The notes beneath the pieces were generated by a model, which was not told where the DNA came from, did no database searches, and saw only the letters and a program-made list of their open reading frames with translations. The translations under genes were made by a program, and so were the position numbers. A stretch of 64,000 nt of DNA from Candidatus Thiothrix sulfatifontis. Its GTDB lineage: Bacteria > Pseudomonadota > Gammaproteobacteria > Thiotrichales > Thiotrichaceae. The stretch is taken from contig CP094685.1 of NCBI GenBank assembly GCA_022828425.1, positions 3,016,046 through 3,080,045 on the forward strand, given 5' to 3'. Shown piece by piece: positions 30,846 through 61,415 of this stretch; positions within the stretch are counted from its first letter, which is position 1; every line of letters starts with the position of its first letter.

Positions 30846-30892
30846 ATTGGTGGGCCTACTAGGACTCGAACCTAGAACCAAAGGATTATGAG
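30846..30892 (-). repeat. attL: partial tRNA(CAT) copy (tRNA positions 32-76 plus 2 nt)
   Basis: 47/47 identity to 61338-61384. No 5-prime tRNA half is present. Confidence 0.9.
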
Positions 30893-31003
30893 AACTCGGA
30901 ACATTCAAACCCACAACCACGTAAAAACCCACTGGAAACCGACCGACACAGCACCCCCAAGCCCGCCAAACCCCGCCCAACCGCACCAGACCACGCGCCA
31001 GAA

Positions 31004-31035: not shown

Positions 31036-31092
31036 GGCGGCGGTTTGCGCTACCATCAAAAACGAACCAAAACCAAACATTCAGGAGGCGGA

Positions 31093-32361
31093 ATGCCCGA
31101 AAAAATCAATTTCACCAAGACCGTGTTGGATGCGCTCGAACCACCCAACAATGGGCGACGTTACGTCTATGACGCAAAAGTGAATGGTTTGCTGCTGATG
31201 ATTACCCCGCCGGGTACGAAGTCGTTTCAAGTGCGGAAACACCTCGACGGCAAGGCGGCGCGTATCACCTTGGGGCGATTCCCTGACATGACCGTGACCC
31301 AAGCGCGGGAAAAAGCCCTAGCAGAACTCTCGCTGATAGCCACCACCCGCCAAACGAGTTACCAGCAAAAGCAAATCAGGGCAGAGGGGCAGCAATTCGC
31401 TAACATGACCTTGGGAAAGGTGTTCAAGGATTATTTGAAATCGCATAAGAATCTGAAGCCCGTCACGATTGCCGATTATGAGCGTGCTGTCAGCGTCGGT
31501 TTTTCCGACTGGGAGTCTCTGCCGTTGATCAGCATCACCCGTGACATGGTAGAGGAACGTCACCGCGAACGTAGCCAACACTCAGAGGCACGGGCAAATA
31601 ACGAGATGCGCGTGTTACGTTGCATCTTCAATTACGCTGCTGAGGAATACTTTGATGACAATCAGCAACCGCTGATCAAATCCAATCCGGTCAAGCGCCT
31701 CTCTCACAGCCGCGCATGGAATCGTGTCGACCGCAAACAGACCATTATCAAAAATGACGAACTCCCGATCTGGTACGAAGCCGTGAACTCACTCCCGGAA
31801 TGGTACGGCGGCGCACTGGCTGAGAAGGCGCGGGTCTATTTCCTGCTAACCCTGTTCAGTGGCTACCGGCGCACGGAGTCCAGCACCTTGCTGTGGGAAA
31901 ATATCGACCTGATCAACAACACGATCAGGCTAGAAGACACCAAAAACCACCAAGCGCACACACTGCCGCTCACCACCTACACCCGCGATCTGTTGACACA
32001 GTGGCAAGCCCGCAGTGGACAGGGCAGCGGCTTAGTATTCCGGGCGACTGACAACACCTCGCCACTGTCCAGCGTGGAGAAAACGATAAAGGCCATTCGC
32101 ACCAGGTCGGGTATTCACTGGGAAATGCACGACCTGAGACGCACGTTCGCAACCACTGCCGAAAACATCGGTATTCGCGGTTACACCCTGAAGCGCCTGA
32201 TCAACCACAAGACCGGCGCGGCGGATGTGACCGGCGGATATATCGTGACCGACGTGGAAAGTCTCAGAGAACCCATGCAAACCATTACCGACAAGCTCTT
32301 AAGCCTGACATCCGGTAAACTATCCGCATCCAAGACCGCACCGGCGGCAATCAATACCTGA
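31093..32361 (+). CDS. int: Tyrosine recombinase, P4-type phage integrase (element A)
   Basis: ATG 31093 after AGGAGG (ORF track starts at 31045). N-terminal arm-binding-like GLLLMITPPGTKSFQVRK. C-terminal HDLRRTFAT...LINHK...GGY catalytic residues. Confidence 0.85.
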   Translation: MPEKINFTKTVLDALEPPNNGRRYVYDAKVNGLLLMITPPGTKSFQVRKHLDGKAARITLGRFPDMTVTQAREKALAELSLIATTRQTSYQQKQIRAEGQQFANMTLGKVFKDYLKSHKNLKPVTIADYERAVSVGFSDWESLPLISITRDMVEERHRERSQHSEARANNEMRVLRCIFNYAAEEYFDDNQQPLIKSNPVKRLSHSRAWNRVDRKQTIIKNDELPIWYEAVNSLPEWYGGALAEKARVYFLLTLFSGYRRTESSTLLWENIDLINNTIRLEDTKNHQAHTLPLTTYTRDLLTQWQARSGQGSGLVFRATDNTSPLSSVEKTIKAIRTRSGIHWEMHDLRRTFATTAENIGIRGYTLKRLINHKTGAADVTGGYIVTDVESLREPMQTITDKLLSLTSGKLSASKTAPAAINT

Positions 32362-33212: not shown

Positions 33213-33620
33213 ATGTATTACCCAGTAGCCATAGAGCAAGGCGACGCTAACCACGCTTACGGCGTGATCGTTCCAGACATTCCGGGCTGTTTTTCAGCGG
33301 GGGATACCTTGGATGAAGCACTGATGCAGGCAGAGGATGCAATCCTATTGCAGCTTGAAGAGTATCTGGATAACGGGAAACCCTTCCCGCAACCCTCACC
33401 AATGGAAGCCTTGCGCCACCAGCAAGCCTATGAAGGGTTCATTTGGTCGATAACCAAAGTGGATGTGAGCAAACTATCAGGCAAGTCCACACGGGTGAAT
33501 ATCAGCCTGCCGGAACGTATCCTTCAACTCATAGACGCGGCGGCGGAACGTGACGGCGAAACCCGTTCAGGATTCATTGCTCGTGCTGCACTAGGGCATA
33601 TCCGGCAATCCGCACACTGA
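33213..33620 (+). CDS. hicB: HicB antitoxin (RHH C-terminus)
   Basis: 135 aa. HicB N-terminal fold motif YGVIVPDIPGCFSAGDTLDEAL and C-terminal RVNISLPERILQLIDAAAERDGETRSGFIA. Confidence 0.85.
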   Translation: MYYPVAIEQGDANHAYGVIVPDIPGCFSAGDTLDEALMQAEDAILLQLEEYLDNGKPFPQPSPMEALRHQQAYEGFIWSITKVDVSKLSGKSTRVNISLPERILQLIDAAAERDGETRSGFIARAALGHIRQSAH

Positions 33621-33639
33621 CACCAACGGAGGGCGCAAC

Positions 33640-34077
33640 ATGGGCGCAATTGCATACAAAACCGACTTTTACGAATGGACGCAAGAGCAAGCGCAACTCT
33701 TGAAAGAGCACCGTTTAGGTGAAATCGACTTGGCAAACCTGATAGAAGAGGTTGAAAGCATGGGCGCAAGTGAACGCAACGAATTCGCCCATCGTCTCGA
33801 AGTGCTGCTGATGCACATGCTCAAGTGGCAGTATCAAGTCGATTACCCCTATCGGCGTAGCTGGCAGCTAACCATTGTGGAGCAACGCAAACGACTAGCG
33901 GCAAGGCTGCGCAAAAGTCCAAGCCTAAAACACCATGCAGGTGAAGAGCTGGCAGACGCTTACGACGTGGCAAAGATCGGCGCGGAACGTGAAACGGGGC
34001 TACCTGAAAGCACCTTTCCAGAGGTTTGCCCGTGGAGCTTTGAGCAAGTGCTAGACCAAGAATTCATGCCAGCCTAA
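33640..34077 (+). CDS. DUF29 domain protein
   Basis: 145 aa. DFYEWTQEQAQLLKEHRLGEIDLANLIEEVESMGASERNEF...LLMHMLKWQYQ is typical of DUF29. Confidence 0.7.
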   Translation: MGAIAYKTDFYEWTQEQAQLLKEHRLGEIDLANLIEEVESMGASERNEFAHRLEVLLMHMLKWQYQVDYPYRRSWQLTIVEQRKRLAARLRKSPSLKHHAGEELADAYDVAKIGAERETGLPESTFPEVCPWSFEQVLDQEFMPA

Positions 34078-34170
34078 GAGCCGCACCTGATGCGGCTTTT
34101 TTGCGTCTTGGATTCTTCATGCCTGCTTGCGTGTCTGCGCATGACCGCACGCTTACAGTGTAAGTGCCGA
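34078..34170 (+). repeat. Cassette-junction repeat R1 (short form, includes intrinsic terminator AGCCGC-N7-GCGGCT-T6)
   Basis: Matches the two ends of R3 (49531-49587 and 49732-49767) but lacks its internal 144 bp. Confidence 0.7.
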
Positions 34171-34262
34171 TCATGAACGTCTTAATGTCCAAAAAAATCA
34201 AACACAGTTACATGATGCGCTTGCTATCCTGTACAACATCTTGAACAACAGGGGGATGGATA

Positions 34263-34385
34263 ATGCAAGCAGTAACCTACAGTGAGGCCAGAAACAACCT
34301 AGCAGCGATGTTAGATAAATTTGCTGAGTTCGCCAGTCAATGCAAAGCGCCTTTTGCAATCATTGGAGAACGTGCGCAAGGGTAA
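34263..34385 (+). pseudogene. Truncated Phd/YefM antitoxin (N-terminal ~19 aa recognisable)
   Basis: MQAVTYSEARNNLAAMLDK... then unrelated sequence and a stop after 40 aa. Confidence 0.55.
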
Positions 34386-34415
34386 GGAGTTGGTGAATAA
34401 AGAGTTGGTAGACGC

Positions 34416-34517
34416 ATGATCTGTTTTGAAGCGCAAGGCTGGGAGGATTACTTGCACTGGCAACAAAATTGGCAAAGCAACACGCGGCAAACAGCGAGAA
34501 GCGGTCAAGAGCACTAA
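34416..34517 (+). pseudogene. Truncated YoeB/Txe toxin (N-terminal fragment)
   Basis: MICFEAQGWEDYLHWQQN... parallels E. coli YoeB LIWSEESWDDYLYWQETDK, then diverges and stops at 33 aa. Confidence 0.55.
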
Positions 34518-34635
34518 CAGCCGCACGGCTCGCCCACTCGCTGCATTGCTGGCGAAATGCGATCCTGATGCACCTACGCCAGAAGAAGCCCGCGAATGGG
34601 AAAGCACACCACCTATCGGTAACGAAATCATCTAA
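34507..34635 (+). pseudogene. C-terminal fragment of a MazE/AbrB-type antitoxin
   Basis: ...KSTNSRTARPLAALLAKCDPDAPTPEEAREWESTPPIGNEII parallels the C-terminus of the intact MazE-like protein at 49838-50104 (KSATRRKKYKLADLLSKCDPSAPIPTAVTEWDNLPATGNEVW). Confidence 0.5.
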
Positions 34636-34639
34636 ACAA

Positions 34640-34835
34640 GAGCCGCACCTGATGCGGCTTTTTTGTGTCTGGGATTCCCCCGGCCTGCTTGCGTGTCAAG
34701 GTCGGGCGTAGCCCGTTCACTTTAACCTTGACTCGCTTTCTGAAAGTAAACTATTGCAAGGGGTACAACATGGTTGCACCCCACTAGCCTGGCGGCAATG
34801 AGCGACAAGAAGAGAAAAACGCCGGTTATCGTCAC
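34640..34835 (+). repeat. Cassette-junction repeat R2 (long form)
   Basis: Near-identical to R3 from the terminator hairpin through GGCGGCAATGAGCGACAA. Nested hairpin GTCAAGGT[CGGGC..GCCCG]..ACCTTGAC (34695-34732) and near-palindrome GGGGTACAAC-ATG-GTTGCACCCC (34760-34782). Confidence 0.7.
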
Positions 34836-34942
34836 CACTGCGCTGAGCCTTCGCAACCTGACCGTCGCAACCTGACCAGCGGCTTTTTTATGCCTGTCTT
34901 TCCTGTTACGTTGGGATTTTTGAAAAACACGGGTAAACCAAA

Positions 34943-35230
34943 GTGGAAGAAACCAAACGATCTAAACGCATAGCCCGCGCAATGTCGGGCGAACATTACG
35001 ACCATCGCGCACAACTGGCAGTTGAAAGACTTGCTGTTTACCATTCGCGGGAACTGGACAGAGGAGAACTACCCGTAGCCCTTTACTATTCCGGCAAAGT
35101 GTCTTTGTGCCTTACCCCGGAGTTACACGCACAAGCAGCAGCAGCGGCTAAGGCATCATCCCGAAGCCTGAATGGTTGGCTCGTTGAAATCATCAAGCGA
35201 GGCGTTGAAAACCCCATAGAAAAGTTATAA
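34943..35230 (+). CDS. Orphan RHH antitoxin-like protein (HicB C-terminal/CopG type)
   Basis: 95 aa. YSGKVSLCLTPELHAQAAAAAKASSRSLNGWLVEIIKRG resembles the YSGKFNLRLP...SLN RHH tail of HicB-family antitoxins. No partner toxin is adjacent. Start uncertain. Confidence 0.4.
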   Translation: MEETKRSKRIARAMSGEHYDHRAQLAVERLAVYHSRELDRGELPVALYYSGKVSLCLTPELHAQAAAAAKASSRSLNGWLVEIIKRGVENPIEKL

Positions 35231-35237
35231 ATAGGGT
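35226..35237 (-). repeat. 12-mer ACCCTATTTATA, inverted copy upstream of the recombinase gene
   Basis: Plus strand reads TATAAATAGGGT. Exact reverse complement of the copies at 36151 and 36201. Confidence 0.7.
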
Positions 35238-35312
35238 TTCTTTGTGGTTTTTTATAGGCTATTATTCTAAATATGTCTTAAGCCTATTTACATGAAACAC
35301 AACGGGGGAACT

Positions 35313-35864
35313 ATGGCACTGGTAGGATATGCACGGGTTAGCACACTTGACCAAGATCACACGGCGCAACTTGAACGCCTGACAGCGGCGGGATGTACCA
35401 AAGTATTCAGCGAGAAGAAAAGCGGCACAACTCAACAGGGCAGAGCCGCGCTTGATGAATGCCTTGGGTGGTTACGTGAAGGGGATACGCTGGTATTCAC
35501 CAAGATAGACCGGCTGGCACGTTCACAGCGTGACCTGCACAACATGGTTCACGACCTTGAAAAGCGCGGCGTGTCGATCATGGCGTTAGATCAAGCGATT
35601 GATACCCGCACGGCGGCGGGTAAGGCATTTCTCGGAATGCTGGCAGTATTCGCAGAGTTTGAAACCAACATCCGCAAAGAGCGGCAACTTGAAGGCATTG
35701 CTAAGGCAAAAACCGAAGGTGTCTACAAGGGGCGCAAGGCAACCGCCAAGGCAAAGCGGGCAGAGGTTGAAGCCTTGCTCACCCAAGGCATGACTAAGCC
35801 GAAGATTGCCGAAACCTTGGGGATCTCTGTTGCCAGCGTTTACAACGTACTGAAAGCCGCTTAA
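35313..35864 (+). CDS. Serine recombinase (resolvase/invertase, Hin/Pin-like)
   Basis: ATG 35313 (ORF track starts at 35292). MALVGYARVSTLDQ catalytic Ser motif and C-terminal HTH KPKIAETLGISVASVYNVLK. Confidence 0.85.
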   Translation: MALVGYARVSTLDQDHTAQLERLTAAGCTKVFSEKKSGTTQQGRAALDECLGWLREGDTLVFTKIDRLARSQRDLHNMVHDLEKRGVSIMALDQAIDTRTAAGKAFLGMLAVFAEFETNIRKERQLEGIAKAKTEGVYKGRKATAKAKRAEVEALLTQGMTKPKIAETLGISVASVYNVLKAA

Positions 35865-35883
35865 CCAATACATCAGCATTCAC

Positions 35884-35909
35884 AGCCCGCCACGATGCGG
35901 GCTTTTTTG
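35884..35909 (+). terminator. Intrinsic terminator after the recombinase gene
   Basis: AGCCCGC-CACGAT-GCGGGCT followed by a T-run. Confidence 0.7.
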
Positions 35910-35970
35910 TGCCTGATGCACGGGGGAAGGGCAAACTAACTTATTTAATCCCGCACTCCCTGAATCCTGA

Positions 35971-36212
35971 ACCCTAGTATCCACGGGGTTTTGAGGGGTT
36001 ATGAATGAGTTTATATAAATGCTTAAAAAACCGGCAATACAGAGGGGCTTAATAACTCAGTGTTTCAGCCATTGCCCACACGATACCCTATGAGCCACTA
36101 TAATTAGACTTAAGACCCTGTTATAAAACCCTCTATTAATTCATAAAACAACCCTATTTATAGGTTTTTTGATAGGTGTTTTGCTCTCTAGCATGGGTTT
36201 ACCCTATTTATA
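35971..36212 (+). repeat. Array of six direct ACCCT-(N)-TAT iterons, the last two exact 12-mers ACCCTATTTATA
   Basis: Copies start at 35971, 36085, 36115, 36128, 36151 and 36201. Copy 36151 lies in a 26-bp imperfect palindrome AAACAACCCTAT-TT-ATAGGTTTTTTG. Confidence 0.6.
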
Positions 36213-36476
36213 GTGGTTGTGGGTAGGGGTGGGGGTCGGCAGAGAAAGCGAATTGCTCTACAGCAAGGTGGGTACTTGGATGTCTGCATGAGTGCTATGC
36301 GGTTTTTCTGGGAATTCTTACCAGTGGCAATAAGAAAAAGATAGATAATCGGTAAATGATAAGATTTTATTATGTTTGTGGATTGCCCGCGAAGGGGTAA
36401 GCGTGGGTTGTTGAATGTCCCTACTGTCACACGATATGGGCTTACAGTGTGCTTTTTTAGGTACGGACTTATCACC

Positions 36477-37883
36477 ATGAGCATGAAACCACTAGATGAC
36501 ATTATCCGGGGCGCATTGCGCCAGACTAGCGCACATCACAACAAGCGTCTGATTGAACCCTCTGGCAGTGAAGGGGCTTTTGCTGCAATGGTCTTGGCAG
36601 AGTTTGACCGGGTTAATGCACAGGCTCTGGTGCGTGAATTCCGCATCTTATCGGGCGCTGAGACGGGCTTCAGCAATGTGGCATTGCCCGCCAGTTATCA
36701 ACGTGAGGTTATCCGCCAAGCCCTGACGGATTTGAATATTCTGAACTTGGTACGGGTCGCTACGGATTCGGCGGCAATGGCAACCACTGAAATTCCTTAC
36801 GAAGAGCGTTCAGCGGCTTCTATCCCGAATGACGGCATTGTGTACGAAGGTCAAGGCATCCCGTTTGCTGGCGTGGGTTTGAAGCGTGATACAGCCTATA
36901 TTCAAGCAATGAAGCTGGCGTTAAAGGTCACTAACGAAGTTATTCACTTCTCGCAGGCAAGCGGCATTAATTGGGATGCGTGGGGCGATAGCATCGCCAC
37001 GAATGCGCGGGTTATTCGCGAATTAATCAGTTTGCGGATTACCAATGAAATGCAGCGGGCGGCGGATTCCTTCAACGCGGTACACGTTACGGGTGAGGCG
37101 TTTACCGCTTCAGCAGATGGCGTGATCAAAACGGCACAATTCCCGATTGTGCGACCGCACCAAGCGCGTGATCTGCAAGGTAATGCCATCGGGAATCCTG
37201 AAAACCCGTTAGTGATCACGATCAATGGCACAGCGATTCCATATTTCATCAATAAGAAAGATTTACCGGCTGGTACTTACTGGACATTCAGCAACATTAA
37301 CCTTGGCTATATCCAGTTGGTTAACCAATTGGGGCAAGTGACGGGCGACGGGTCGGAAGGGACGATTAGCTACAGCACGGCAACCAATCTGTTTAAGTTC
37401 GACATTCAAGCGCCAGTCGGTACGAAATACACCCATCACCTGAATGACTTGCTAACCGCTATCGGTGATCGTAAGGCGGTGTTATCCGGGCAACGTTACG
37501 CACGTCCTGACTACGCTGTAATGTCTTACATGCTGAATAACGAAGTGACCAAGGCGGAGCAGTTCGTGGCATCCATGCGACGTGATGGCACGGCAACCAC
37601 CTTGCAAGGTGATTTGGACATGGTGAAGGGTTTGCCAGTGTTCGACACCAACGCACCGGGCGATTTTGGGGATATGCGTATTTTGCTGGGGCAACGTGGC
37701 TTAACGGGTTACACCATCGCCAAGCCCTACAGTATGGGCGCACCGTTTGAGGCAACCGATAGCAACGGTTATCCGACGGGAGAAAAGATTGCTTATGGTG
37801 AGGAATACAGCGCAATCCATACACCCAAGCCAGTACGCAACCGTTATACATCCGTTTTGGTTTATGACAGTACCACACGTTAA
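36477..37883 (+). CDS. Hypothetical 468-aa protein, tentatively HK97-fold major-capsid-like
   Basis: ORF 36372-37883 with start uncertain (ATG 36477 or 36483). The patterns LNILNLVRVATDS...EIPYEE, VYEGQGIPFAG...AMKLALKVTNEVIHFS and INWDAWGDSIATNARVIRELISLRITNEM recall Phage_capsid-type proteins. Not verified. Confidence 0.4.
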   Translation: MSMKPLDDIIRGALRQTSAHHNKRLIEPSGSEGAFAAMVLAEFDRVNAQALVREFRILSGAETGFSNVALPASYQREVIRQALTDLNILNLVRVATDSAAMATTEIPYEERSAASIPNDGIVYEGQGIPFAGVGLKRDTAYIQAMKLALKVTNEVIHFSQASGINWDAWGDSIATNARVIRELISLRITNEMQRAADSFNAVHVTGEAFTASADGVIKTAQFPIVRPHQARDLQGNAIGNPENPLVITINGTAIPYFINKKDLPAGTYWTFSNINLGYIQLVNQLGQVTGDGSEGTISYSTATNLFKFDIQAPVGTKYTHHLNDLLTAIGDRKAVLSGQRYARPDYAVMSYMLNNEVTKAEQFVASMRRDGTATTLQGDLDMVKGLPVFDTNAPGDFGDMRILLGQRGLTGYTIAKPYSMGAPFEATDSNGYPTGEKIAYGEEYSAIHTPKPVRNRYTSVLVYDSTTR

Positions 37884-38140: not shown

Positions 38141-38390
38141 AGTGGGTTATGTTTTTGAGTTGGAGCATAGCCCGCTCTTTTTATGCTTATGGAATTATGT
38201 ATAAATTCCAATGATTTAACGATTTTTTGTTGTGAGCCGCGCTTTTATACCCTGTGGCGTGGCATTCGGGCGGCGGGTAACGTCATGTGGTGCTAATGAC
38301 CTTAGCACGCAACCCGACCGCCTGCTTTTTATTCCCCATCTGTTGCAATCCCTAACCCCTTCGCATTACCGTCTGCTAAGCCGGGACAAT

Positions 38391-38470
38391 AAAAAAGGGG
38401 AAAGTTAGTGGCTTTCCCCTTTTGCGTGTTCCTGAGTAGAAGTTCTGACGATCTGACAGGAAGGTAAAGT
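38391..38470 (+). promoter_or_regulatory. Conserved hairpin plus leader preceding the element A cargo gene
   Basis: A-run, GGGGAAAG/CTTTCCCC hairpin, T-run, then TGACGATCTGACAGGAAGGTAAAGT-ATG. The counterpart at 52660-52738 has compensatory stem changes. Confidence 0.6.
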
Positions 38471-46841: not shown

Positions 46842-46898
46842 GGCGGCGGTTTGCGCTACCATCAAAACCGAACCAAAACCAAACATTCAGGAATTAGC

Positions 46899-48180
46899 AT
46901 GGCTAAAAAAACGGCTGAAAAAATCAACTTCACCAAGACAGTGCTAGATGCGCTCGAACCACCCAGCAATGGGCGACGTTACGTATACGACTCAAAAGTG
47001 AATGGTTTGCTGCTGATGATCACCCCACCGGGTACAAAATCGTTTCAGGTGCGGAAACACCTCGAAGGCAGGGCGGCGCGTATCACCTTTGGGCGGTTCC
47101 CTGACATGACCGTGACGCAAGCGCGGGAAAAAGCCCTCGCAGAACTCTCGCTGATAGCCACCACCCGCCAAACCAGTTACCAGCAAAAGCAGGGCAGGGC
47201 AGAGGTACAGCAATTCGCCAACATGACATTGGGGAAAGTGTTCAAGGACTATCTCACCTCACACAAGAATCTGAAGCCCGCTACCATTGCCGATTATGAG
47301 CGTTCTATCCGCGTCGGCTTTCCCGACTGGGAGTCACTGCCGCTGAACAGCATCAGCCGCGATATGGTCGAAGAGCGTCACCGCGAACGCAGCCAACACT
47401 CCGAAGCACGGGCGAATAACGAAATGCGCGTGTTACGTAGCATTTTCAATTATGCCGCTGAGGAATACTTTGATGACAGCGGGCAACCGCTGATTAAGTC
47501 CAACCCGGTCAAGCGCCTCTCGCATAGCCGCGCATGGAACCGGGTAGACCGCAAACAGACCATTATCAAAAATGACGAACTCCCGATCTGGTACGAAGCC
47601 GTGAACTCACTCCCGGAATGGTACGGCGGCGCACTGGCTGAGAAGGCGCGGGTCTATTTCCTGCTAACCCTGTTCAGTGGCTACCGGCGCACGCGAGTCC
47701 AGCACCTTGCTGTGGGAAAATATCGACCTGATCAACAACACGATCAGGCTGGAAGACACCAAAAACCACCAAGCGCACACACTGCCGCTCACCACCTACA
47801 CCCGCGATCTGTTGACACAGTGGCAAGCCCGCAGCGGGCAGGGCAGCGGCTTAGTATTCCGGGCGACTGACAACACCTCGCCCCTGTCCAGCGTGGAAGA
47901 AGTGATTAAAGCCATCCGTGCCAGGACAAACATTCAATGGGCAATGCACGACCTGCGGCGCACGTTCGCCACCACTGCCGAAAACATCGGTGTTCGCGGT
48001 TACACCCTGAAGCGCCTGATCAACCACAAGACCGGCGCGGCGGACGTGACCGGCGGTTACATCGTGACCGACGTGGAAAGCCTCAGAGAACCCATGCAAA
48101 CCATCACCGACAAGCTCTTAAGCCTGACATCCGGTAAACTATCCGCATCCAAGACCGCACCGGCGGCAATCAATACCTGA
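46899..48180 (+). pseudogene. int: P4-type tyrosine integrase with a 1-nt insertion (about 47694)
   Basis: ORFs 46851-47870 and 47677-48180 are together colinear with intA. B reads GCGCACGCGAGTCC where A reads GCGCACGGAGTCC. Confidence 0.75.
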
Positions 48181-48189
48181 AAAGGAAGT

Positions 48190-48735
48190 TTGGAAATGAC
48201 CGACACCCCGAAAAAAACCTTAAGCATTACGCGCAAACCTGCTAACAGTGGCCCGGTAAATGCCACCGCTGGCACAATCCAACGCAGCGGCAAACGCATC
48301 ATCAGGCGTGACGAACTGCCGCAAGTGCAGCGCATCCCCGCACCCAAACCCAAACCAGCCGCCACCGCCAAACCCAAAAAGCCGCGCAAGCCACCCGCAC
48401 CTAAGAAGCAAGTCACACCACCGTCACAACTGAAAATCCGCGAATTGAACGACCGCCTAAACGCCTTCCGCGTCTGGTTCGACTTCCAACCGCTGGCAAT
48501 CGGCATTGAAAAGGAAATTTTCCGACTGGTGAACGAGGAGCACTTCCCCGGCGCAAGCAAAAGGGTTGTGCAAAAGCTGCTGAGGATGCACGTTAATCAC
48601 GGTGTCTACCTGCAAAACCTCAAACACGGCACAGACCGCTATCAGCTCGACGGCACACCCGACGGCACGATTGATGACTATCAGCGCCAGCTCGCAACCG
48701 ACACCCTGACAACACGCTTGCAGGGTAAGTGCTGA
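48190..48735 (+). CDS. ProQ/FinO-domain RNA-binding protein (element B copy)
   Basis: 181 aa, 4 substitutions relative to 32371-32916. Confidence 0.7.
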   Translation: MEMTDTPKKTLSITRKPANSGPVNATAGTIQRSGKRIIRRDELPQVQRIPAPKPKPAATAKPKKPRKPPAPKKQVTPPSQLKIRELNDRLNAFRVWFDFQPLAIGIEKEIFRLVNEEHFPGASKRVVQKLLRMHVNHGVYLQNLKHGTDRYQLDGTPDGTIDDYQRQLATDTLTTRLQGKC

Positions 48736-49342: not shown

Positions 49343-49353
49343 GTTAGGTAACG

Positions 49354-49677
49354 ATGAGCCTAGACAAAGCCGTTAAGCACGGCAAAGAGCGACGCAAGCC
49401 GCATACAGGCGGCAAACTCATTGCTAATTCATGCAGGAATCACGGCGGTTGTCCGTGGTGCGAAGGCAACCGCCTACACAAGCACAAGCGCCGCGAACCC
49501 ATACCAGACGATCACATCATTGACCCCGAAGAGCCGCACCTGATGCGGCTTTTTTTTGCCTGCTATTCCCCGGCCTGCTTGCGTGTCAAGGTCGGGCGAA
49601 GCCCGTTCACTTTAACCTTGACTCGCTTTCTGAAAGTAAACTACTGCAAGGGGTGCAACATGGTTGCACCCCACTAG
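49354..49677 (+). CDS. Small Cys-rich basic protein whose 3-prime end reads into repeat R3
   Basis: N-terminal 55-60 aa (KHGKERRKPHTGGKLIANSCRNHGGCPWCEGNRLHKHKRRE) look genuine. From 49531 the ORF translates the terminator hairpin and repeat. Confidence 0.4.
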   Translation: MSLDKAVKHGKERRKPHTGGKLIANSCRNHGGCPWCEGNRLHKHKRREPIPDDHIIDPEEPHLMRLFFACYSPACLRVKVGRSPFTLTLTRFLKVNYCKGCNMVAPH

Positions 49678-49767
49678 CCTAGCGGCAATGAGCGACAAAA
49701 AGAACACTGCCGATTATCGTTGCCCAAGATATGCGCATGACCGCACGGTTACAGGGCAAGTGCTGAA
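49531..49767 (+). repeat. Cassette-junction repeat R3 (long form)
   Basis: Terminator AGCCGC-N7-GCGGCT-T8, nested hairpin 49585-49622, and perfect palindrome GGGGTGCAAC-ATG-GTTGCACCCC at 49650-49672. Its ends match R1. Confidence 0.7.
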
Positions 49768-49837
49768 TGAAATAGAATTTTCTTTATGGAAAATACAACT
49801 ATAATGGATGCTATCAACCCACTAAGGAGGATGCAGA

Positions 49838-50104
49838 ATGACCACCGCAACATTACGCACCGTCGGTAATTCCGTCGCTGTGGTAATCCCTAAGCAATGG
49901 CTATCCATGTTAGGGCTGGAAGCAGGCGCAAAAGTAGAAATGAGCATCGAAGGCGGCAAGCTCACATTACAGCCAAAATCAGCGACTAGACGCAAAAAAT
50001 ACAAATTAGCAGACCTGCTAAGTAAGTGTGACCCATCCGCACCTATCCCAACAGCCGTAACCGAATGGGACAACCTACCAGCGACGGGGAATGAAGTATG
50101 GTAA
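49838..50104 (+). CDS. MazE/ChpBI-like AbrB-fold antitoxin
   Basis: 88 aa with an AAGGAGG RBS. LRTVGNSVAVVIPKQWLSMLGLEAGAKVEMSIEGGKLTLQP is a SpoVT/AbrB swapped-hairpin motif. Confidence 0.75.
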   Translation: MTTATLRTVGNSVAVVIPKQWLSMLGLEAGAKVEMSIEGGKLTLQPKSATRRKKYKLADLLSKCDPSAPIPTAVTEWDNLPATGNEVW

Positions 50105-50449
50105 AGCGCGGCGGGTTTGAGCGTGGCGATATTGTGAGGGTGAGTTTTAACCCAACTGTGGGGCGTGAGATGCAAGGCGATATGCGCCCCGCATTGGTGC
50201 TTTCGACCCGTGAGTTCAATAACACTGTCGGAACTGCTTTCGTTGCCGATTACCCAAGGCGGCAATCTTGCACGGGTAGCAGGGTTCGCCGTGCCATTAA
50301 TGGGCAGTGGAACGGAAACACAAGGCGTTATTCTGGTTAGCGCAGTAAGAACCCTTGATCTAGTGGGCAGAGGGGCGAAACGAATAGAAATCGCACCTGA
50401 TAGCATTGTCGATGAAGTGCTTGAAATACTCGCCGGTATCATCGAATAA
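50098..50449 (+). pseudogene. MazF/ChpBK-like toxin with a frameshift near 50245
   Basis: ORFs 50098-50340 and 50165-50449 together are colinear with E. coli ChpB (MVKRGGFERGDIVRVSFNP...RPALVLS... / ...PITQGGNLARVAGFAVPL...). One base is missing around GTTGCCGATT. Confidence 0.75.
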
Positions 50450-50591
50450 ATATGACAAAAGCCGCCAACATGCTGATCAGGCAGAACTGATGCACAAGTT
50501 GACGAAGGTATTACAAGCCCGCTTTGACACCTAATGTGAGGCGACAAGAGGCGGCATGTTATCCACTCGCTGAATAGTAAAACCTGAACAG

Positions 50592-50619
50592 AAAAAAGCC
50601 GGAGTTTATCCGGCTTTTT
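50592..50619. terminator. Bidirectional intrinsic terminator
   Basis: A6-GCCGG-AGTTTAT-CCGGC-T5. Confidence 0.7.
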
Positions 50620-50644
50620 GTTCTGTCAGTGGTCAGAAAATAGC

Positions 50645-50869
50645 TTATAAAAAGCCGCGTTTTCTGTTCGTGTCGGGGTGTGAAACCATTTTATTAGCAG
50701 TATTGCCCCGGAATTTCATGGATTCGGTTTTTCCGTCTACCAAGTGCTTTATGTCGGTAAGCAATTCTATGGCGGATTTCTCAGAGCAGCGGGTATGCAT
50801 CTGGATGATCTGCAACAGTTCAGTTTCTTGGTTGTTAAAGGTGTGTGTTGTCATTTTGGAAGATGGCAC
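50645..50869 (-). CDS. Small hypothetical protein (74 aa), copy 1 of a tandem duplication
   Basis: GTG 50869 after GGAG (an ATG 15 nt downstream is also possible). Predicted helical. No recognised domain. Confidence 0.4.
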   Translation of the reverse strand: MPSSKMTTHTFNNQETELLQIIQMHTRCSEKSAIELLTDIKHLVDGKTESMKFRGNTANKMVSHPDTNRKRGFL

Positions 50870-51149
50870 GTTATATGCTCCTGTTTTGGTTGAGTTGACA
50901 GTTAAAAAAAGCCACAGTCTTTCTGTCCGTGTCGGGGTGTGAAACCATTTTATTAGCAGTATTGCCTCGGAATTTCATGGATTCGGTTTTTCCGTCTACC
51001 AAGTGCTTTATGTCGGTAAGCAATTCTATGGCGGATTTCTCAGAGCAGCGGGTATGCATCTGGATGATCTGCAACAGTTCAGTTTCTTGGTTGTTAAAGG
51101 TGTGTGTTGTCATTTTGGAAGATGGCACGTTATATGCTCCTGTTTTGGT
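50649..51149. repeat. Tandem direct duplication, ~243-bp units with 259-bp period
   Basis: 50672-50890 matches 50931-51149, and I saw only one mismatch by eye (CCCCGG versus CCTCGG). Confidence 0.85.
50871..51128 (-). CDS. Small hypothetical protein (85 aa), copy 2 of a tandem duplication
   Basis: Identical to copy 1 over the first 67 aa except N68D, then a different tail. A perfect TATAAT lies upstream on the minus strand at 51160-51165. Confidence 0.4.
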   Translation of the reverse strand: MPSSKMTTHTFNNQETELLQIIQMHTRCSEKSAIELLTDIKHLVDGKTESMKFRGNTANKMVSHPDTDRKTVAFFNCQLNQNRSI

Positions 51150-51196
51150 TAAGGTTTTTATTATATCGCTTATTGTTAATAATGGATATGAATCTA

Positions 51197-51228
51197 ATTA
51201 GTGATATAATAAAATCTTTATAACTAAT
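51197..51228 (+). promoter_or_regulatory. Extended -10 promoter (TGATATAAT, 51202-51210) embedded in an imperfect inverted repeat, upstream of the 325-aa gene
   Basis: ATTAGTGATATAA...TTATAACTAAT arms. Lies in the 112-bp AT-rich divergent intergenic region. Confidence 0.45.
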
Positions 51229-51240
51229 GGATTTTAAACA

Positions 51241-52218
51241 ATGGAAAGGCTACAAGATTCTATCAATCTGATTGAAGAAAAAATTATCGGCATGGCGCAT
51301 ATTCAAGAATTGCCTCATGATTTATTTAGGAACGAAGGTGAGTTTTCAGTTATTAAGCGTGGGTTGATAATCTCAAACCATCCAGAGCTTGCAATACTTA
51401 ACAAAGAATTGGATAAAGCGGAGGTGGTGGCTATGGGCATATTCAGCAAAGCCGATAACAAACCGGCGGCTTATCAGTTTATAGCGGCATGTATAACAAA
51501 AGCAGAAATGCAAATCAAAAAAGCGGAAAATGCACGGCATGAAGCAGAGTTGGATATAAAGCGCAATGAAGCAGCGTATCAGGAAACCATAAGAAATCAC
51601 TCAGTTGCATTGTTAAGTGATTTTGAAATGAATGTGCAAGATATTGACCTTGCCGCGATCAACCAAACCGCAGCCCAGCAACGCCTAAAAAATGCGATTA
51701 ATGCCGTTAGCTTGCTAACGCTTAAGCTCAATATGTTTAAGAAGATCAAAGCAACAATATTCAAACAGGCATTAAAAGATTACTACGCTGAATTGTATGG
51801 CGAAGTAGAAGCAGAATTGAAGGTTTTCTCTGCAAGGTTTGATCAACTCAAAGCGGCGGCATTGTTGGCATTTCCCCAAGCATCAGCATTAGATGGTGGC
51901 GCACGGATTAACAGCGAAGTCGCTAACATGGTGGAAAGCCTACGCCATTTCCCCCCAAGTGATTACAAAACTATCTTGAATCGTACCATTGCGGAAAGCC
52001 TGACATCTGATCCTGATGAAAACGCTTTGCTTGACAAGATCGGCATCACCTACCAAGCCAAGTTGGATGAATGGAACACTAGCGGTCGTGAAGAACCAGC
52101 GAGTGACAATTTCCCAACGGCACAACAACGGGCGAAAGCGGAAAAGGTGAGTTCTGAAATACGTCAACAGAAGTACGGTGCAGACGCTCCACTGAGTCCA
52201 AGACCTTACGGCATTTAA
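51241..52218 (+). CDS. Hypothetical 325-aa protein, predicted largely alpha-helical/coiled-coil
   Basis: Long AT-rich ORF with heptad-like Ala/Lys/Glu-rich stretches. No domain recognised. Confidence 0.5.
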   Translation: MERLQDSINLIEEKIIGMAHIQELPHDLFRNEGEFSVIKRGLIISNHPELAILNKELDKAEVVAMGIFSKADNKPAAYQFIAACITKAEMQIKKAENARHEAELDIKRNEAAYQETIRNHSVALLSDFEMNVQDIDLAAINQTAAQQRLKNAINAVSLLTLKLNMFKKIKATIFKQALKDYYAELYGEVEAELKVFSARFDQLKAAALLAFPQASALDGGARINSEVANMVESLRHFPPSDYKTILNRTIAESLTSDPDENALLDKIGITYQAKLDEWNTSGREEPASDNFPTAQQRAKAEKVSSEIRQQKYGADAPLSPRPYGI

Positions 52219-52272
52219 CGCGGTTAGCGACTGCCTGACAGCTTGAAAATCATCCTGATTCACCGTCATCTG

Positions 52273-52303
52273 ACCGGCTTGCACGTACCAAGCCGGTTTT
52301 TTT
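52273..52303 (+). terminator. Intrinsic terminator after the 325-aa gene
   Basis: ACCGGCTTG-CACGTAC-CAAGCCGGT followed by T7. Confidence 0.75.
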
Positions 52304-52659
52304 GCTTTTGCAAGTAGCTGCATGGTTTTGCATAGAAACTGCAAGTGACAAAAACCGCATCCAGCCCTATACCGACAAGGGCTAGGGGTGCGTGACCCAG
52401 TGCATATTTTTCGTATAGACAATTTACGCGGGTGCGGTGGGGCAAGTGGGCGACGGTGCGGCGGGGAACATAACGGGGGGAAATGGGGAATGTTCACGGT
52501 ATTGAGAGGCGGAGTTCATCATTCAGAGCACGCTGGTTCATACATCGTGCAACCGATGACCCCAAGCAACCAGGTTGAGCGGATATTAAGCCCCGTTCAA
52601 ATCAACGGGCGACTTGATCTATACAGCCGATTGACAGACAGTCGACAACCTAGCGGCAT

Positions 52660-52738
52660 AAAAAAAGGGGAACTGTTGAGAGTTCCCCTTTTTACTTGTC
52701 CCCGTGGATGTTATGACGATCTGACAGGAGATAGAAGT
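52660..52738 (+). promoter_or_regulatory. Conserved hairpin plus leader preceding the element B cargo gene
   Basis: A-run, GGGGAAC/GTTCCCC hairpin, T-run, then TGACGATCTGACAGGAGATAGAAGT-ATG. Counterpart of 38391-38470. Confidence 0.6.
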
Positions 52739-53542
52739 ATGGTGCAACAGCAAGCAGGGTGCAACCAATGGGGTGGAGAACTTGGAGCAAAAGAGCGTGA
52801 GGATTTTCTAACGCTCCCCGAATGGCATAGAAAAATGTTTTTAAACTTTCCTTGTCCTTTGGATACAACAAATATAGAGCGAATCAGAAAAAGCTTGTCT
52901 GCTATGAACAATGGCAATGATGAAGCTAATATTTTATGGTCAAGAGCAATTCTTGCACGTCGGAACGCTTCAGAAGAAATGAGTATATTAATGCTTGCCT
53001 GCATGGTTTTTCCGATGCTCGAATATAGTGAGAGTAGGGTTACATTTGAGCATAACTTGTTGGAATCTTTAGGCGTTGAGTTAGTAATTTGGCAAGAAGA
53101 GCATCCGTACTTTGTCTTTGCATTTTCAGACGAAGAGTACGAACAAATAATTAGGAAACCGGTAAATGTAAACGATGTAAATAAGTTTGCCGAAACAAGA
53201 CCGCAAGGCTATGAAATTATTTTGGGTCTTACCGTGTGGCAAAATTATATTAAGGAAAGAAAAGAGGAATCAGAAAAATATAGGAAGTATTTATTAGGTG
53301 AGATTTTTGGAGACGATCAACAGTTATCACCCGAACTGCTACCAGAGCCAGCACCAGCAGCACCACCACAAAAAAAGAGCGCCTACCAACTCGAAAAAGA
53401 AAAATATCGCAGAGCTGTTTATCAGGAAGTAATGAACGAAATGGGCGTTTCAACCAAGAAAGGCATATTGGTAGAGGAGGCGGCGAAACGTGCGGAATGT
53501 AGCGAGAAAATGATTAGAGAAGCGCTAAAAGCTGGTGAGTAA
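52739..53542 (+). CDS. Cargo gene of element B: hypothetical 267-aa protein with C-terminal HTH-like segment
   Basis: ATG 52739 after AGGAG. ORF track extends to 52388 through a terminator hairpin. C-terminus GILVEEAAKRAECSEKMIREALKAGE resembles an excisionase/MerR-type HTH. Confidence 0.55.
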   Translation: MVQQQAGCNQWGGELGAKEREDFLTLPEWHRKMFLNFPCPLDTTNIERIRKSLSAMNNGNDEANILWSRAILARRNASEEMSILMLACMVFPMLEYSESRVTFEHNLLESLGVELVIWQEEHPYFVFAFSDEEYEQIIRKPVNVNDVNKFAETRPQGYEIILGLTVWQNYIKERKEESEKYRKYLLGEIFGDDQQLSPELLPEPAPAAPPQKKSAYQLEKEKYRRAVYQEVMNEMGVSTKKGILVEEAAKRAECSEKMIREALKAGE

Positions 53543-53751
53543 TCGTTTGGAGGTTTTTGGTAATTTTTGGTAGTTTTTGGTGATTTACGCGACTATAAGT
53601 AAAAAATCGGCACAATAAAAAAAGGCCAGCAATGCCGCTGGCCTTGGAAAAAAGTACAGCCGATATGATAACCAGACACCAACAAGCATTCAATCACCAA
53701 AACACGAAACCGAATGATTCCTCGAAATCATCCAAAAAAACCAAACACATC

Positions 53752-61337: not shown

Positions 61338-61384
61338 ATTGGTGGGCCTACTAGGACTCGAACCTAGAACCAAAGGATTATGAG
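61338..61384 (-). repeat. attR: direct-repeat copy within the intact tRNA(CAT)
   Basis: Identical to 30846-30892. Confidence 0.9.
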
Positions 61385-61415
61385 TCCTCTGCGCTAACCA
61401 TTGCGCCATAGGCCC
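61340..61415 (-). tRNA. tRNA with anticodon CAT: probably tRNA-Ile2 (ileX-like), alternatively elongator tRNA-Met
   Basis: 76-nt cloverleaf: acceptor GGGCCTA/TAGGCCC, D arm GCGC-AATGGTTA-GCGC, anticodon arm GAGGA-CTCATAA-TCCTT, T arm CTAGG-TTCGAGT-CCTAG, encoded CCA. G1-C72 excludes an initiator. Confidence 0.9.

Follow-up and report, generated by a model that had tools for sequence, protein, structure and literature searches.

The window analysed here, a stretch of 64,000 nucleotides from the genome of Candidatus Thiothrix sulfatifontis (contig CP094685.1; the genome is termed G000 below), carries at about 50.6-52.5 kb a compact pair of divergent transcription units, in which a tandemly duplicated gene for a small protein of 74 residues faces away from a gene for a 325-residue protein, predicted to form a coiled coil. 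The favoured explanation, to which a probability of about 0.4 is given, is that the region is a self-contained, repressor-gated accessory cassette, horizontally exchanged and carried by a small phage-satellite-like integrative element, the product of which would bind a partner in the conflict between phage and satellite, and possibly the host.

According to the proposed mechanism, the small gene would be expressed from a two-cistron transcript and yield a DNA-binding protein of the ribbon-helix-helix type, the tail of which is basic and conserved. Assembled into dimers or larger oligomers, the protein would bind palindromic sequences overlapping both -10 boxes, thereby limiting its own synthesis and shutting the strong extended -10 promoter of the 325-residue gene. 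The product of the latter, putatively a non-enzymatic, elongated coiled-coil hairpin with variable patches at one end, would bind a phage, satellite or host protein once it is made, with phage interference or helper manipulation as the outcome. This explanation is preferred to its rivals because of the autonomy of the cassette (its own divergent promoters, a hairpin at each end, and a G+C content below that of its flanks) and its foreign base composition, its apparent movement from one backbone to another, its location within the accessory zone, and the variable patches on an otherwise constrained protein that lacks recognizable motifs.

The divergent control region and the duplicated small gene

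The open reading frame (ORF) positions confirm that the small genes diverge from the 325-residue gene across an intergenic region of 112 bp, as had been described (Table 1). The TGATATAAT promoter of the 325-residue gene sits within a 25-nt inverted repeat, the arms of which are complementary at 21 of their 25 positions. The significance of this palindrome is clear, as none of 1000 dinucleotide-preserving shuffles of the 112 bp reached 21 arm matches (the maximum being 16); the earlier observation of an extended -10 embedded in an inverted repeat is thus upheld. The string TGnTATAAT by itself appears in 215 of 5000 shuffles. On the opposite strand, a candidate promoter for the small genes was read by eye, with a perfect TATAAT at 17 bp from TATCCA, the latter being the complement of the plus-strand -35 hexamer TGGATA. 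Since the -35 hexamers are complementary, the two promoters form mirror images about position 51185. Exact copies of the arm motif GATATAATAAAANCNTTA occur in the 3.69-Mb genome only in these two arms, and with 2 mismatches there are three genome matches, equal to the control count of three. This layout suggests that both promoters would be repressed by the small protein.

The duplication itself was recovered by Tandem Repeats Finder as a single array (period 259, 2.0 copies, 97% matches), and a repeat search delimited ungapped core copies at 50661-50894 and 50920-51153, each of 234 nt and 99% identical. The 259-bp period given in the preliminary description therefore stands, whereas the single mismatch reported with it applies to the 234-nt core only, since the 3' ends of the copies differ. 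In the alignment, the promoter-proximal copy shows a 2-bp insertion and a few substitutions at its 3' end, as a result of which its reading frame is lengthened and a longer, unrelated tail stands in place of the conserved ending ...RKRGF(L/F). The repeated unit lacks a promoter and no hairpin was found between the copies (z 0.6; 140 of 200 shuffles fold equally well), and the two copies thus probably share one two-cistron transcript. Past the distal copy, a hairpin between an A-run and a T-run can be regarded as a candidate two-way terminator, closing both mazF on the plus strand and the small-gene operon on the minus strand; a consensus terminator scan left it unlisted, and it was found by folding against shuffles. 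No terminal repeats bounding the cassette were found. The G+C content is 0.37-0.44 at 50.5-52.0 and 52.5-53.75 kb and about 0.51 at 52.0-52.75 kb, compared with 0.49-0.60 in the flanks, such that the AT-richness earlier drawn as continuous to about 53.6 kb holds for the first two intervals and not for the third.

Table 1. Features of the cassette, its surroundings and its G104 counterpart (positions refer to the window, except those preceded by L004, which belong to the G104 locus)
Feature	Position	Strand	Description
First element	~30.85 to 46.7 kb		
Second element	~46.7 to 61.4 kb		Holds the cassette
Hairpin between A-run and T-run	50594..50620		Folds at -24.4 (+) / -23.4 (-) kcal/mol; z -6.2 / -7.6
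Tandem duplication	50645..51150		Unit of 259 bp: ORF and ribosome site, no promoter; 12-nt filler at junction
Distal small-gene copy	50645..50869	-	74 residues; GTG start; AGGAG 8 nt upstream; intact C-terminus ...RKRGFL
Promoter-proximal small-gene copy	50871..51128	-	85 residues; altered C-terminus
Divergent control region	51129..51240		112 bp; 22% G+C
Inverted repeat, left arm	51150..51174		Contains minus-strand TATAAT (51165 to 51160) for the small genes; spans their likely start site
Promoter-like site of the 325-residue gene	51183..51210	+	TGGATA-16-TATAAT; TG before -10; 10/12 matches
Inverted repeat, right arm	51196..51220		Spans plus-strand -10 and likely start site
Second inverted repeat	51197-51206 / 51219-51228		90%; brackets plus-strand -10
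325-residue protein gene	51241..52218	+	All-helical coiled coil (predicted)
Intrinsic-terminator-like hairpin	52272..52298	+	After the 325-residue gene; z -3.6
Non-coding tail	52299..52530		Short TGCA-containing repeats at ~52306-52350, then a G-rich stretch
G104 insertion in the 325-residue gene	L004 10055-11477		Flanking blastn pieces overlap by 14 bp
G104 insertion in the AT-rich 267-residue gene	L004 7666-8923		Two-ORF unit, 98 + 289 residues

Two rare protein families

Both protein families are tiny, with four to six relatives among billions of proteins. Pfam, PHROGs, NCBIfam and PADLOC contain nothing that matches the small protein, which has four relatives (P0005-P0008), 70-97% identical, among 5.8 billion clusters. 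A sequence-profile search of the PDB gave a single irrelevant match (E 0.76), and an Atlas search found nothing. Its AlphaFold2 model (predicted local distance difference test, pLDDT, 72) consists of an extended N-terminus followed by helices at residues 13-26 and 30-44, and the model and family alignment together indicate a disordered C-terminal tail with conserved basic residues. Ribbon-helix-helix domains make up 13 of the 50 rows listed by the VIA fold search, with nearly full-length alignments of 42-48 residues at low Z-scores of 2.9-3.3; they are TraM, ArtA, SvtR, AmrZ, PutA, NikR, Arc, CdbA, MazE6/9 and Rv0298, all of which we take to have this fold, PutA being the exception in that its title names it. 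The best examples are TraM (Z 3.3, rmsd 3.0, 43/50 residues), PutA (Z 3.2, 44/44) and Arc (Z 3.1, 48/53), and such low scores are expected since only about 45 residues are available for comparison. Foldseek returned nothing significant, with Arc at rank 2 (E 5.1). On the strength of the model, a ribbon-helix-helix fold is probable, and the small protein is probably the repressor of the cassette. The regulator-plus-regulated-gene layout proposed in the preliminary description agrees with this model and with the two -10 boxes lying in a significant palindrome. A complex prediction for the small and the 325-residue proteins scored 0.01, below the mark, which is evidence neither for nor against their contact.

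The 325-residue protein is likewise devoid of family matches in Pfam, PHROGs, NCBIfam or PADLOC. A word-indexed search yielded 4 relatives and an exhaustive phmmer search over 1.84 billion representatives yielded 6; a 665-residue phmmer relative, matching residues 199-265 only, is probably coiled-coil noise. A profile search of the 5.8-billion collection added no further member, and a sequence-profile search of the PDB gave 0 matches. The earlier remark that neither protein resembles anything known thus holds at the sequence level, in family libraries and profile searches alike. One distant homologue of 412 residues (P0017) has an N-terminal extension of 112 residues, which looks like read-through of the upstream spacer and may hide a divergent small gene on the opposite strand.

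The model of the 325-residue protein (pLDDT 74; predicted template modelling score, pTM, 0.63) is all helix, dominated by a long hairpin of helices 74-126 and 133-210. Fold searches led to generic structures: the best match in the PDB by Foldseek was an F-BAR domain (E 0.098), the best in BFVD was generic (E 0.024), the VIA rows (top Z 8.7) were all coiled-coil hairpins under the tool's bar for helical proteins, and the best Atlas score was 0.80. No enzymatic or membrane feature was found in the model or in the fold searches, and no polar catalytic-type motif was seen by eye in the 32 invariant columns of the family alignment. Conservation peaks at IDLAAINQTAAQQRLKNA.NAVSLLTLK, adjoining the turn of the hairpin.

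Comparison with the copy in G104, a genome of the same genus, revealed 10 synonymous and 6 non-synonymous changes in the conserved parts of the gene, corresponding to proportions of synonymous (pS) and non-synonymous (pN) differences of about 0.066 and 0.011, respectively, and a pN/pS of about 0.16. At residues 28-69 the values are pN 0.33 and pS 0.28. Judged from these codon changes, the protein is under purifying selection, apart from two allele-variable patches. Among four close sequences, variation is concentrated at residues 28-69 and 213-229, and all four combinations of the two patch types are present in these four sequences, which points to recombination between alleles. The helix lengths would place both patches at the same end of the rod.

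The cassette among satellite-like elements

The G104 locus is 96-97% identical to the window over 49348-52925, as opposed to 87% for int-ProQ, which suggests recent swapping of the cassette region. G104 carries the same small-gene duplication, with both copies intact and 74 residues long, and as each copy, proximal or distal, has its orthologue at the same place in the other genome, the duplication is older than the split of G000 and G104. The non-coding tail is matched in G104 at 96%, with an extra 124 bases after 52530 (L004 9316-9439). The two-ORF unit inserted in the 267-residue gene of G104 is repeated at L004 3477-4639. Four metagenome runs, each from a different study, yielded contigs that match only from 50940 or 50970 to 52530, at 80% identity or more, and are unlike the window on either side; those of three runs (X1, X2 and X4) cease matching at 52530; the non-coding tail therefore moves together with the cassette in other samples. 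Two of the metagenome contigs extend 329 and 387 bases further to the left without a match in 47-55 kb, and hence have one small-gene copy and a different left neighbour. Taken together, these alignments suggest that the cassette is exchanged horizontally as a unit.

A broader profile search revealed the pair in a further genome, G106, in which the gene for a 265-residue homologue of the large protein (E 2.8e-26) diverges from an HTH_17 gene. The HTH_17 gene is succeeded by a tandem pair of small genes (67 and 70 residues), the products of which score E 1.2e-6 and 5e-5 against the small-protein profile and share 41.5% identity with each other. The spacer holds a 23-nt inverted repeat. The G106 element consists of a P4-type integrase, TumE-type and DUF433/DUF5615 pairs, the gene pair, a hairpin-leader unit (the same unit as at 38340-38456 of the window), a slot gene and, at some distance, a Toprim primase. 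The pair thus lies between toxin-antitoxin genes and the hairpin-leader unit, inverted relative to the integrase when compared with the window, and in a different backbone. By these profile matches, the pair is a conserved unit in two satellite backbones. A second small gene has emerged, or been retained, on at least two occasions, which suggests selection for more small protein, or for two kinds of it. After the large gene of G106, the motif TGCGTAA occurs three times (L026 10590-10720), and a JetD (Wadjet) gene is found at L026 18701-19891, some 5 kb past the integrase of the element.

The distribution of the pair is otherwise narrow. Before the G106 locus was included, hmmsearch with both profiles against all ORFs of 11 loci and the window retrieved G000 and G104 only, and a class-level sample of 400 genomes retrieved only G000. 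Searches for homologue loci in genome, viral and metagenome contigs found no locus, and tblastn against phage and plasmid collections found no match. In the literature on Thiothrix islands and satellites, nothing on such elements was present among the matches listed, and no publication was found for the accession of the G104 fragment.

The cassette resides in the second of two tandem, related elements that together span about 30.5 kb, bracketed by a 52-bp direct repeat of the tRNA-Met 3' end (30846-30897 and 61338-61389; 96% identical, the first 28 bases exact). Paralogous blocks of the two elements are 78-96% identical, and each carries int, ProQ, an HTH_17 gene and a rolling-circle replicase. 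Because of this gene content, the elements are considered phage-satellite-like, with core functions of the phage-inducible chromosomal island (PICI) type as described in PMC10085698. They share with PICI and P4-type satellites an integrase, an AlpA-type regulator (HTH_17), a replicase of their own and the form of a small, tRNA-linked island. No tail or lysis families were found among the element ORFs scanned. According to the same paper (PMC10085698), PICI accessory genes sit between the integrase and the regulatory/replication module, and this is the position of the cassette; P4 carries gop-beta-cII beside int. The cassette also resembles satellite cargo in its foreign base composition and in having its own promoter and terminators, yet it differs in that no known defence or virulence family is matched and that the corresponding interval of sister elements holds head genes rather than cargo.

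The sister elements were located by means of the ProQ-type anchor, which has relatives in 23 out of 28 genomes in the genus; of the best places, 10 were taken and 9 of these annotated (57 ORFs), the tenth being too short. In six of these nine loci, Phage_cap_P2 and Phage_term_smal lie between the toxin-antitoxin genes and a conserved 253-residue block, and in five of the nine Phage_GPO is present in the same interval. The carriers of these head parts are L008-L011, L014 and L016 (G106, G084, G085, G083, G088 and G098). Homology of the sister loci to the window ends at the end of mazF (50449) and restarts at about 52626 or 53606. Capsid-related and small-terminase genes are absent from the window element, and tblastn revealed no remnant of a head gene. 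As homology stops at mazF, resumes past the cassette and leaves no remnant, the cassette occupies the interval of the head module. Elements with head parts carry int, ProQ, toxin-antitoxin pairs, an AlpA-type gene and a rolling-circle replicase, and their head is confined to scaffold, capsid and small terminase, with neither portal nor large terminase in the parts scanned. Such Thiothrix elements with a partial P2-type head may constitute an undescribed type of satellite. What is known in this picture is the regulated cargo unit in a satellite; what is new is its parts and their swap for the head module.

In order, the second element comprises int (frameshifted), ProQ/FinO, BrnT/BrnA, a 107-residue ORF, MazE, MazF (frameshifted), the cassette, an AT-rich 267-residue gene behind a hairpin-leader, ORFs of 253 and 76 residues, an HTH_17 gene, a Phage_GPA-type replicase and ORFs of 118 and 769 residues, followed by tRNA-Met and rpoD. 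The toxin-antitoxin-rich accessory setting noted earlier is borne out, as BrnT/BrnA and MazE/MazF lie directly upstream of the cassette, inside an integrated element. The int gene of the second element (46851-48180) is split by a frameshift into two overlapping ORFs, compared with the single 438-residue ORF of the first element (31045-32361), and a single base, at 47694 within int, is missing from the contigs of two runs. In the same manner, mazF (50098-50449) is broken into a pair of ORFs, which overlap and each match one half of PemK, versus an intact 117-residue mazF in G104 and sister loci.

Further observations concern the remainder of the elements. The cargo of the first element (33213-37883) encodes a YlcI/YnfO-like protein of 135 residues, a serine-recombinase-like protein of 190 residues and a 503-residue protein without a family. 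Repeated terminator-plus-flank units (34071-34170, 34633-34813, 48701-48735 and 49524-49766) mark cargo-gene borders in both elements, and in metagenome contigs 48730 is followed directly by about 50457-50543, after which the sequence returns to 49348; this pattern suggests that cargo units are shuffled at such junctions. Just after the 267-residue gene, at 53554-53586, the 10-bp unit TTTTTGGTAA is repeated in tandem (3.3 copies). In an Rfam scan of 46-62 kb, only the tRNA scored above the gathering score. Downstream of ProQ, L012 (G083) carries TnpB, a reverse-transcriptase fragment and a CorA-like protein, and L013 (G080) a type I restriction subunit and PDC-S70 proteins, the borders of the element being not established in either locus.

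Possible functions and their implications

The preliminary description took the cassette for a candidate defence or abortive-infection pair inside a toxin-antitoxin-rich hotspot. The defence claim is unproven, as neither protein has a PADLOC match and the 325-residue protein has no enzymatic or membrane feature; the survey of neighbourhoods, in place of enrichment for defence, revealed head genes in six of nine sister loci and defence-type genes near two. Homologues in housekeeping contexts, which that description named as counter-evidence, were not seen either, all three contexts (G000, G104 and G106) being integrated satellite-like elements. The earlier account is therefore partly supported: its anatomy was right and its regulator-effector reading reasonable.

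Several observations weigh against the favoured explanation of a repressor-gated accessory cassette. No ribbon-helix-helix family of Pfam is matched at E up to 10 by any of 6 members of the small-protein family, hhalign of the small protein to P22 Arc and Mnt gave probabilities of 0.2 and 11, and the assignment of the fold draws on low Z-scores and, PutA aside, on fold labels that the entry titles do not give. For the 325-residue protein, the fold matches are to generic coiled coils only, such that its role as a binder is an argument from absence. Neither protein matches a known defence family (PADLOC-DB 2.0; 0 families at E up to 0.01), and the defence-type genes near only two of nine sister loci lie where element borders are not established. 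The frameshifts in int and mazF indicate that the element is decaying in this genome, and the 325-residue gene of G104 is interrupted by a segment of about 1.4 kb with a 319-residue ORF; decay and disruption together imply that the cassette may be dispensable or costly.

The closest layout known to this analysis is the immI region of phage P22, in which, by the annotation of NC_002371, mnt (83 residues) is divergent from arc (53 residues) and ant (300 residues). As in immI, a small (predicted) repressor gene diverges from a strong promoter of a protein of about 300 residues, the putative operators overlap the promoters, small repressor genes are two in number and terminators are located at both ends. 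The cassette departs from immI in that both of its small genes lie on the same side, as copies in tandem, that an antisense RNA is not apparent and that its large protein is predicted to fold as a coiled-coil hairpin; nor is there a sequence relation to Ant (hhalign 0.1), Mnt or Arc. By analogy, the cassette could be an antirepressor module, in which the repressors would restrain a protein that inactivates the repressor of a helper prophage or satellite and leads to induction. This alternative is unlikely, although it survives best: overlapping promoters and operators and the terminators at both ends are in its favour, as are the recurrence of two small genes in the cassette (G000, G104 and G106), the location directly upstream of the leader and regulator slot in both backbones, and the allele-variable patches, which would fit fast-evolving targets. 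It is opposed by the family profile, which scores 0.1 against Ant, by the lack of any such family in Pfam or PHROGs for 9 members of the 325-residue family, by the absence of a small gene between the promoter and the 325-residue gene, and by the absence of a P2-family capsid gene from the whole G000 genome, so that no resident P2-like helper is evident. That the cassette does something else altogether, or has no function, is another unlikely outcome.

The cassette is also comparable to type II toxin-antitoxin systems, since it combines a small strand-helix-helix DNA binder (predicted), a conserved tail, probable autoregulation at a palindrome and a toxin-antitoxin-rich neighbourhood. In an addiction pair, the small protein would repress and its disordered tail would neutralise a growth-inhibiting 325-residue protein. 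Many type II antitoxins are built of a ribbon-helix-helix and a conserved basic tail, several antitoxin domains appear among the VIA rows, the small gene gained extra copies on at least two occasions, and in G104 the 325-residue gene is knocked out next to two intact small genes. Yet the genes are divergent on opposite strands rather than co-transcribed, the partner, with 325 residues, has three times the length of a usual toxin and matches no toxin family, fold or catalytic motif, and the small genes of G106 belong to a longer operon behind an HTH_17 gene. An addiction function is accordingly regarded as rather improbable.

The position of the cassette in the interval that holds capsid and small-terminase genes in 6 of 9 sisters, and the scaffold too in 5, raises the idea of a helper-capsid hijacker, an external scaffold or size-determination factor like P4 Sid that would replace the lost head genes. 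The 325-residue protein is long and all-helical, as scaffolds are, and, like Sid and Psu of P4, it would be an all-helical, satellite-encoded protein where relatives carry head functions. Faint leads to Psu were seen in Atlas (score 0.79) and Foldseek (3rx6 at rank 18, E 0.45); according to the documentation of these tools, neither score rises above chance. The Pfam Psu family matches none of 9 members, hhalign gave 0.1 for Psu and 0.3 for Sid, and these values, like that for Ant, speak against a relation of the 325-residue protein to any of the three. The regulation differs as well, the cassette having its own near-consensus promoter and a private (putative) repressor rather than late-gene control, and G106 has the pair in a different backbone. 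A hijacking role is thus very unlikely.

Ribbon-helix-helix proteins are centromere binders in plasmid partition, and short iterated motifs, read by eye, follow the large gene in both backbones (TGCA-type at 52306-52350; TGCGTAA three times after L026 10589) of an element with its own replicase, yet a segregation or stability system, in which such a binder and its coiled-coil partner would act on the adjacent repeats, is the least probable of all, given that no NTPase is present, that family library scans match neither cassette protein to a partition family and that the repeats are short.

The favoured explanation, a repressor-gated accessory cassette, may also be cast in a bolder form, which is tentative and on the doubtful side: the cassette would be an undescribed satellite module, in which a coiled-coil protein, able to recognise a phage protein through its variable tip, is gated by a single ribbon-helix-helix repressor or by two. 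The module would act as a new, non-enzymatic kind of effector in anti-phage defence or helper interference, or as a new inducer-sensing switch, and would have been adopted by satellites after the loss of their own head genes.

Genes on which the outcome of a phage infection depends abound in phage satellites, and this source is still poorly mapped. The present work provides a compact, testable unit (a promoter, a candidate palindromic operator, a probable repressor and a single putative effector), in which both protein families are without an annotated relative and which appears to move between two satellite backbones. It also brings to light widespread Thiothrix satellites in which a P2-type head is represented by scaffold, capsid and small terminase only. 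Should the coiled-coil protein indeed sense or block a phage protein, a non-enzymatic type of effector would be added to the known repertoire; if it does not, the cassette would still represent a tidy case of module replacement in satellites.

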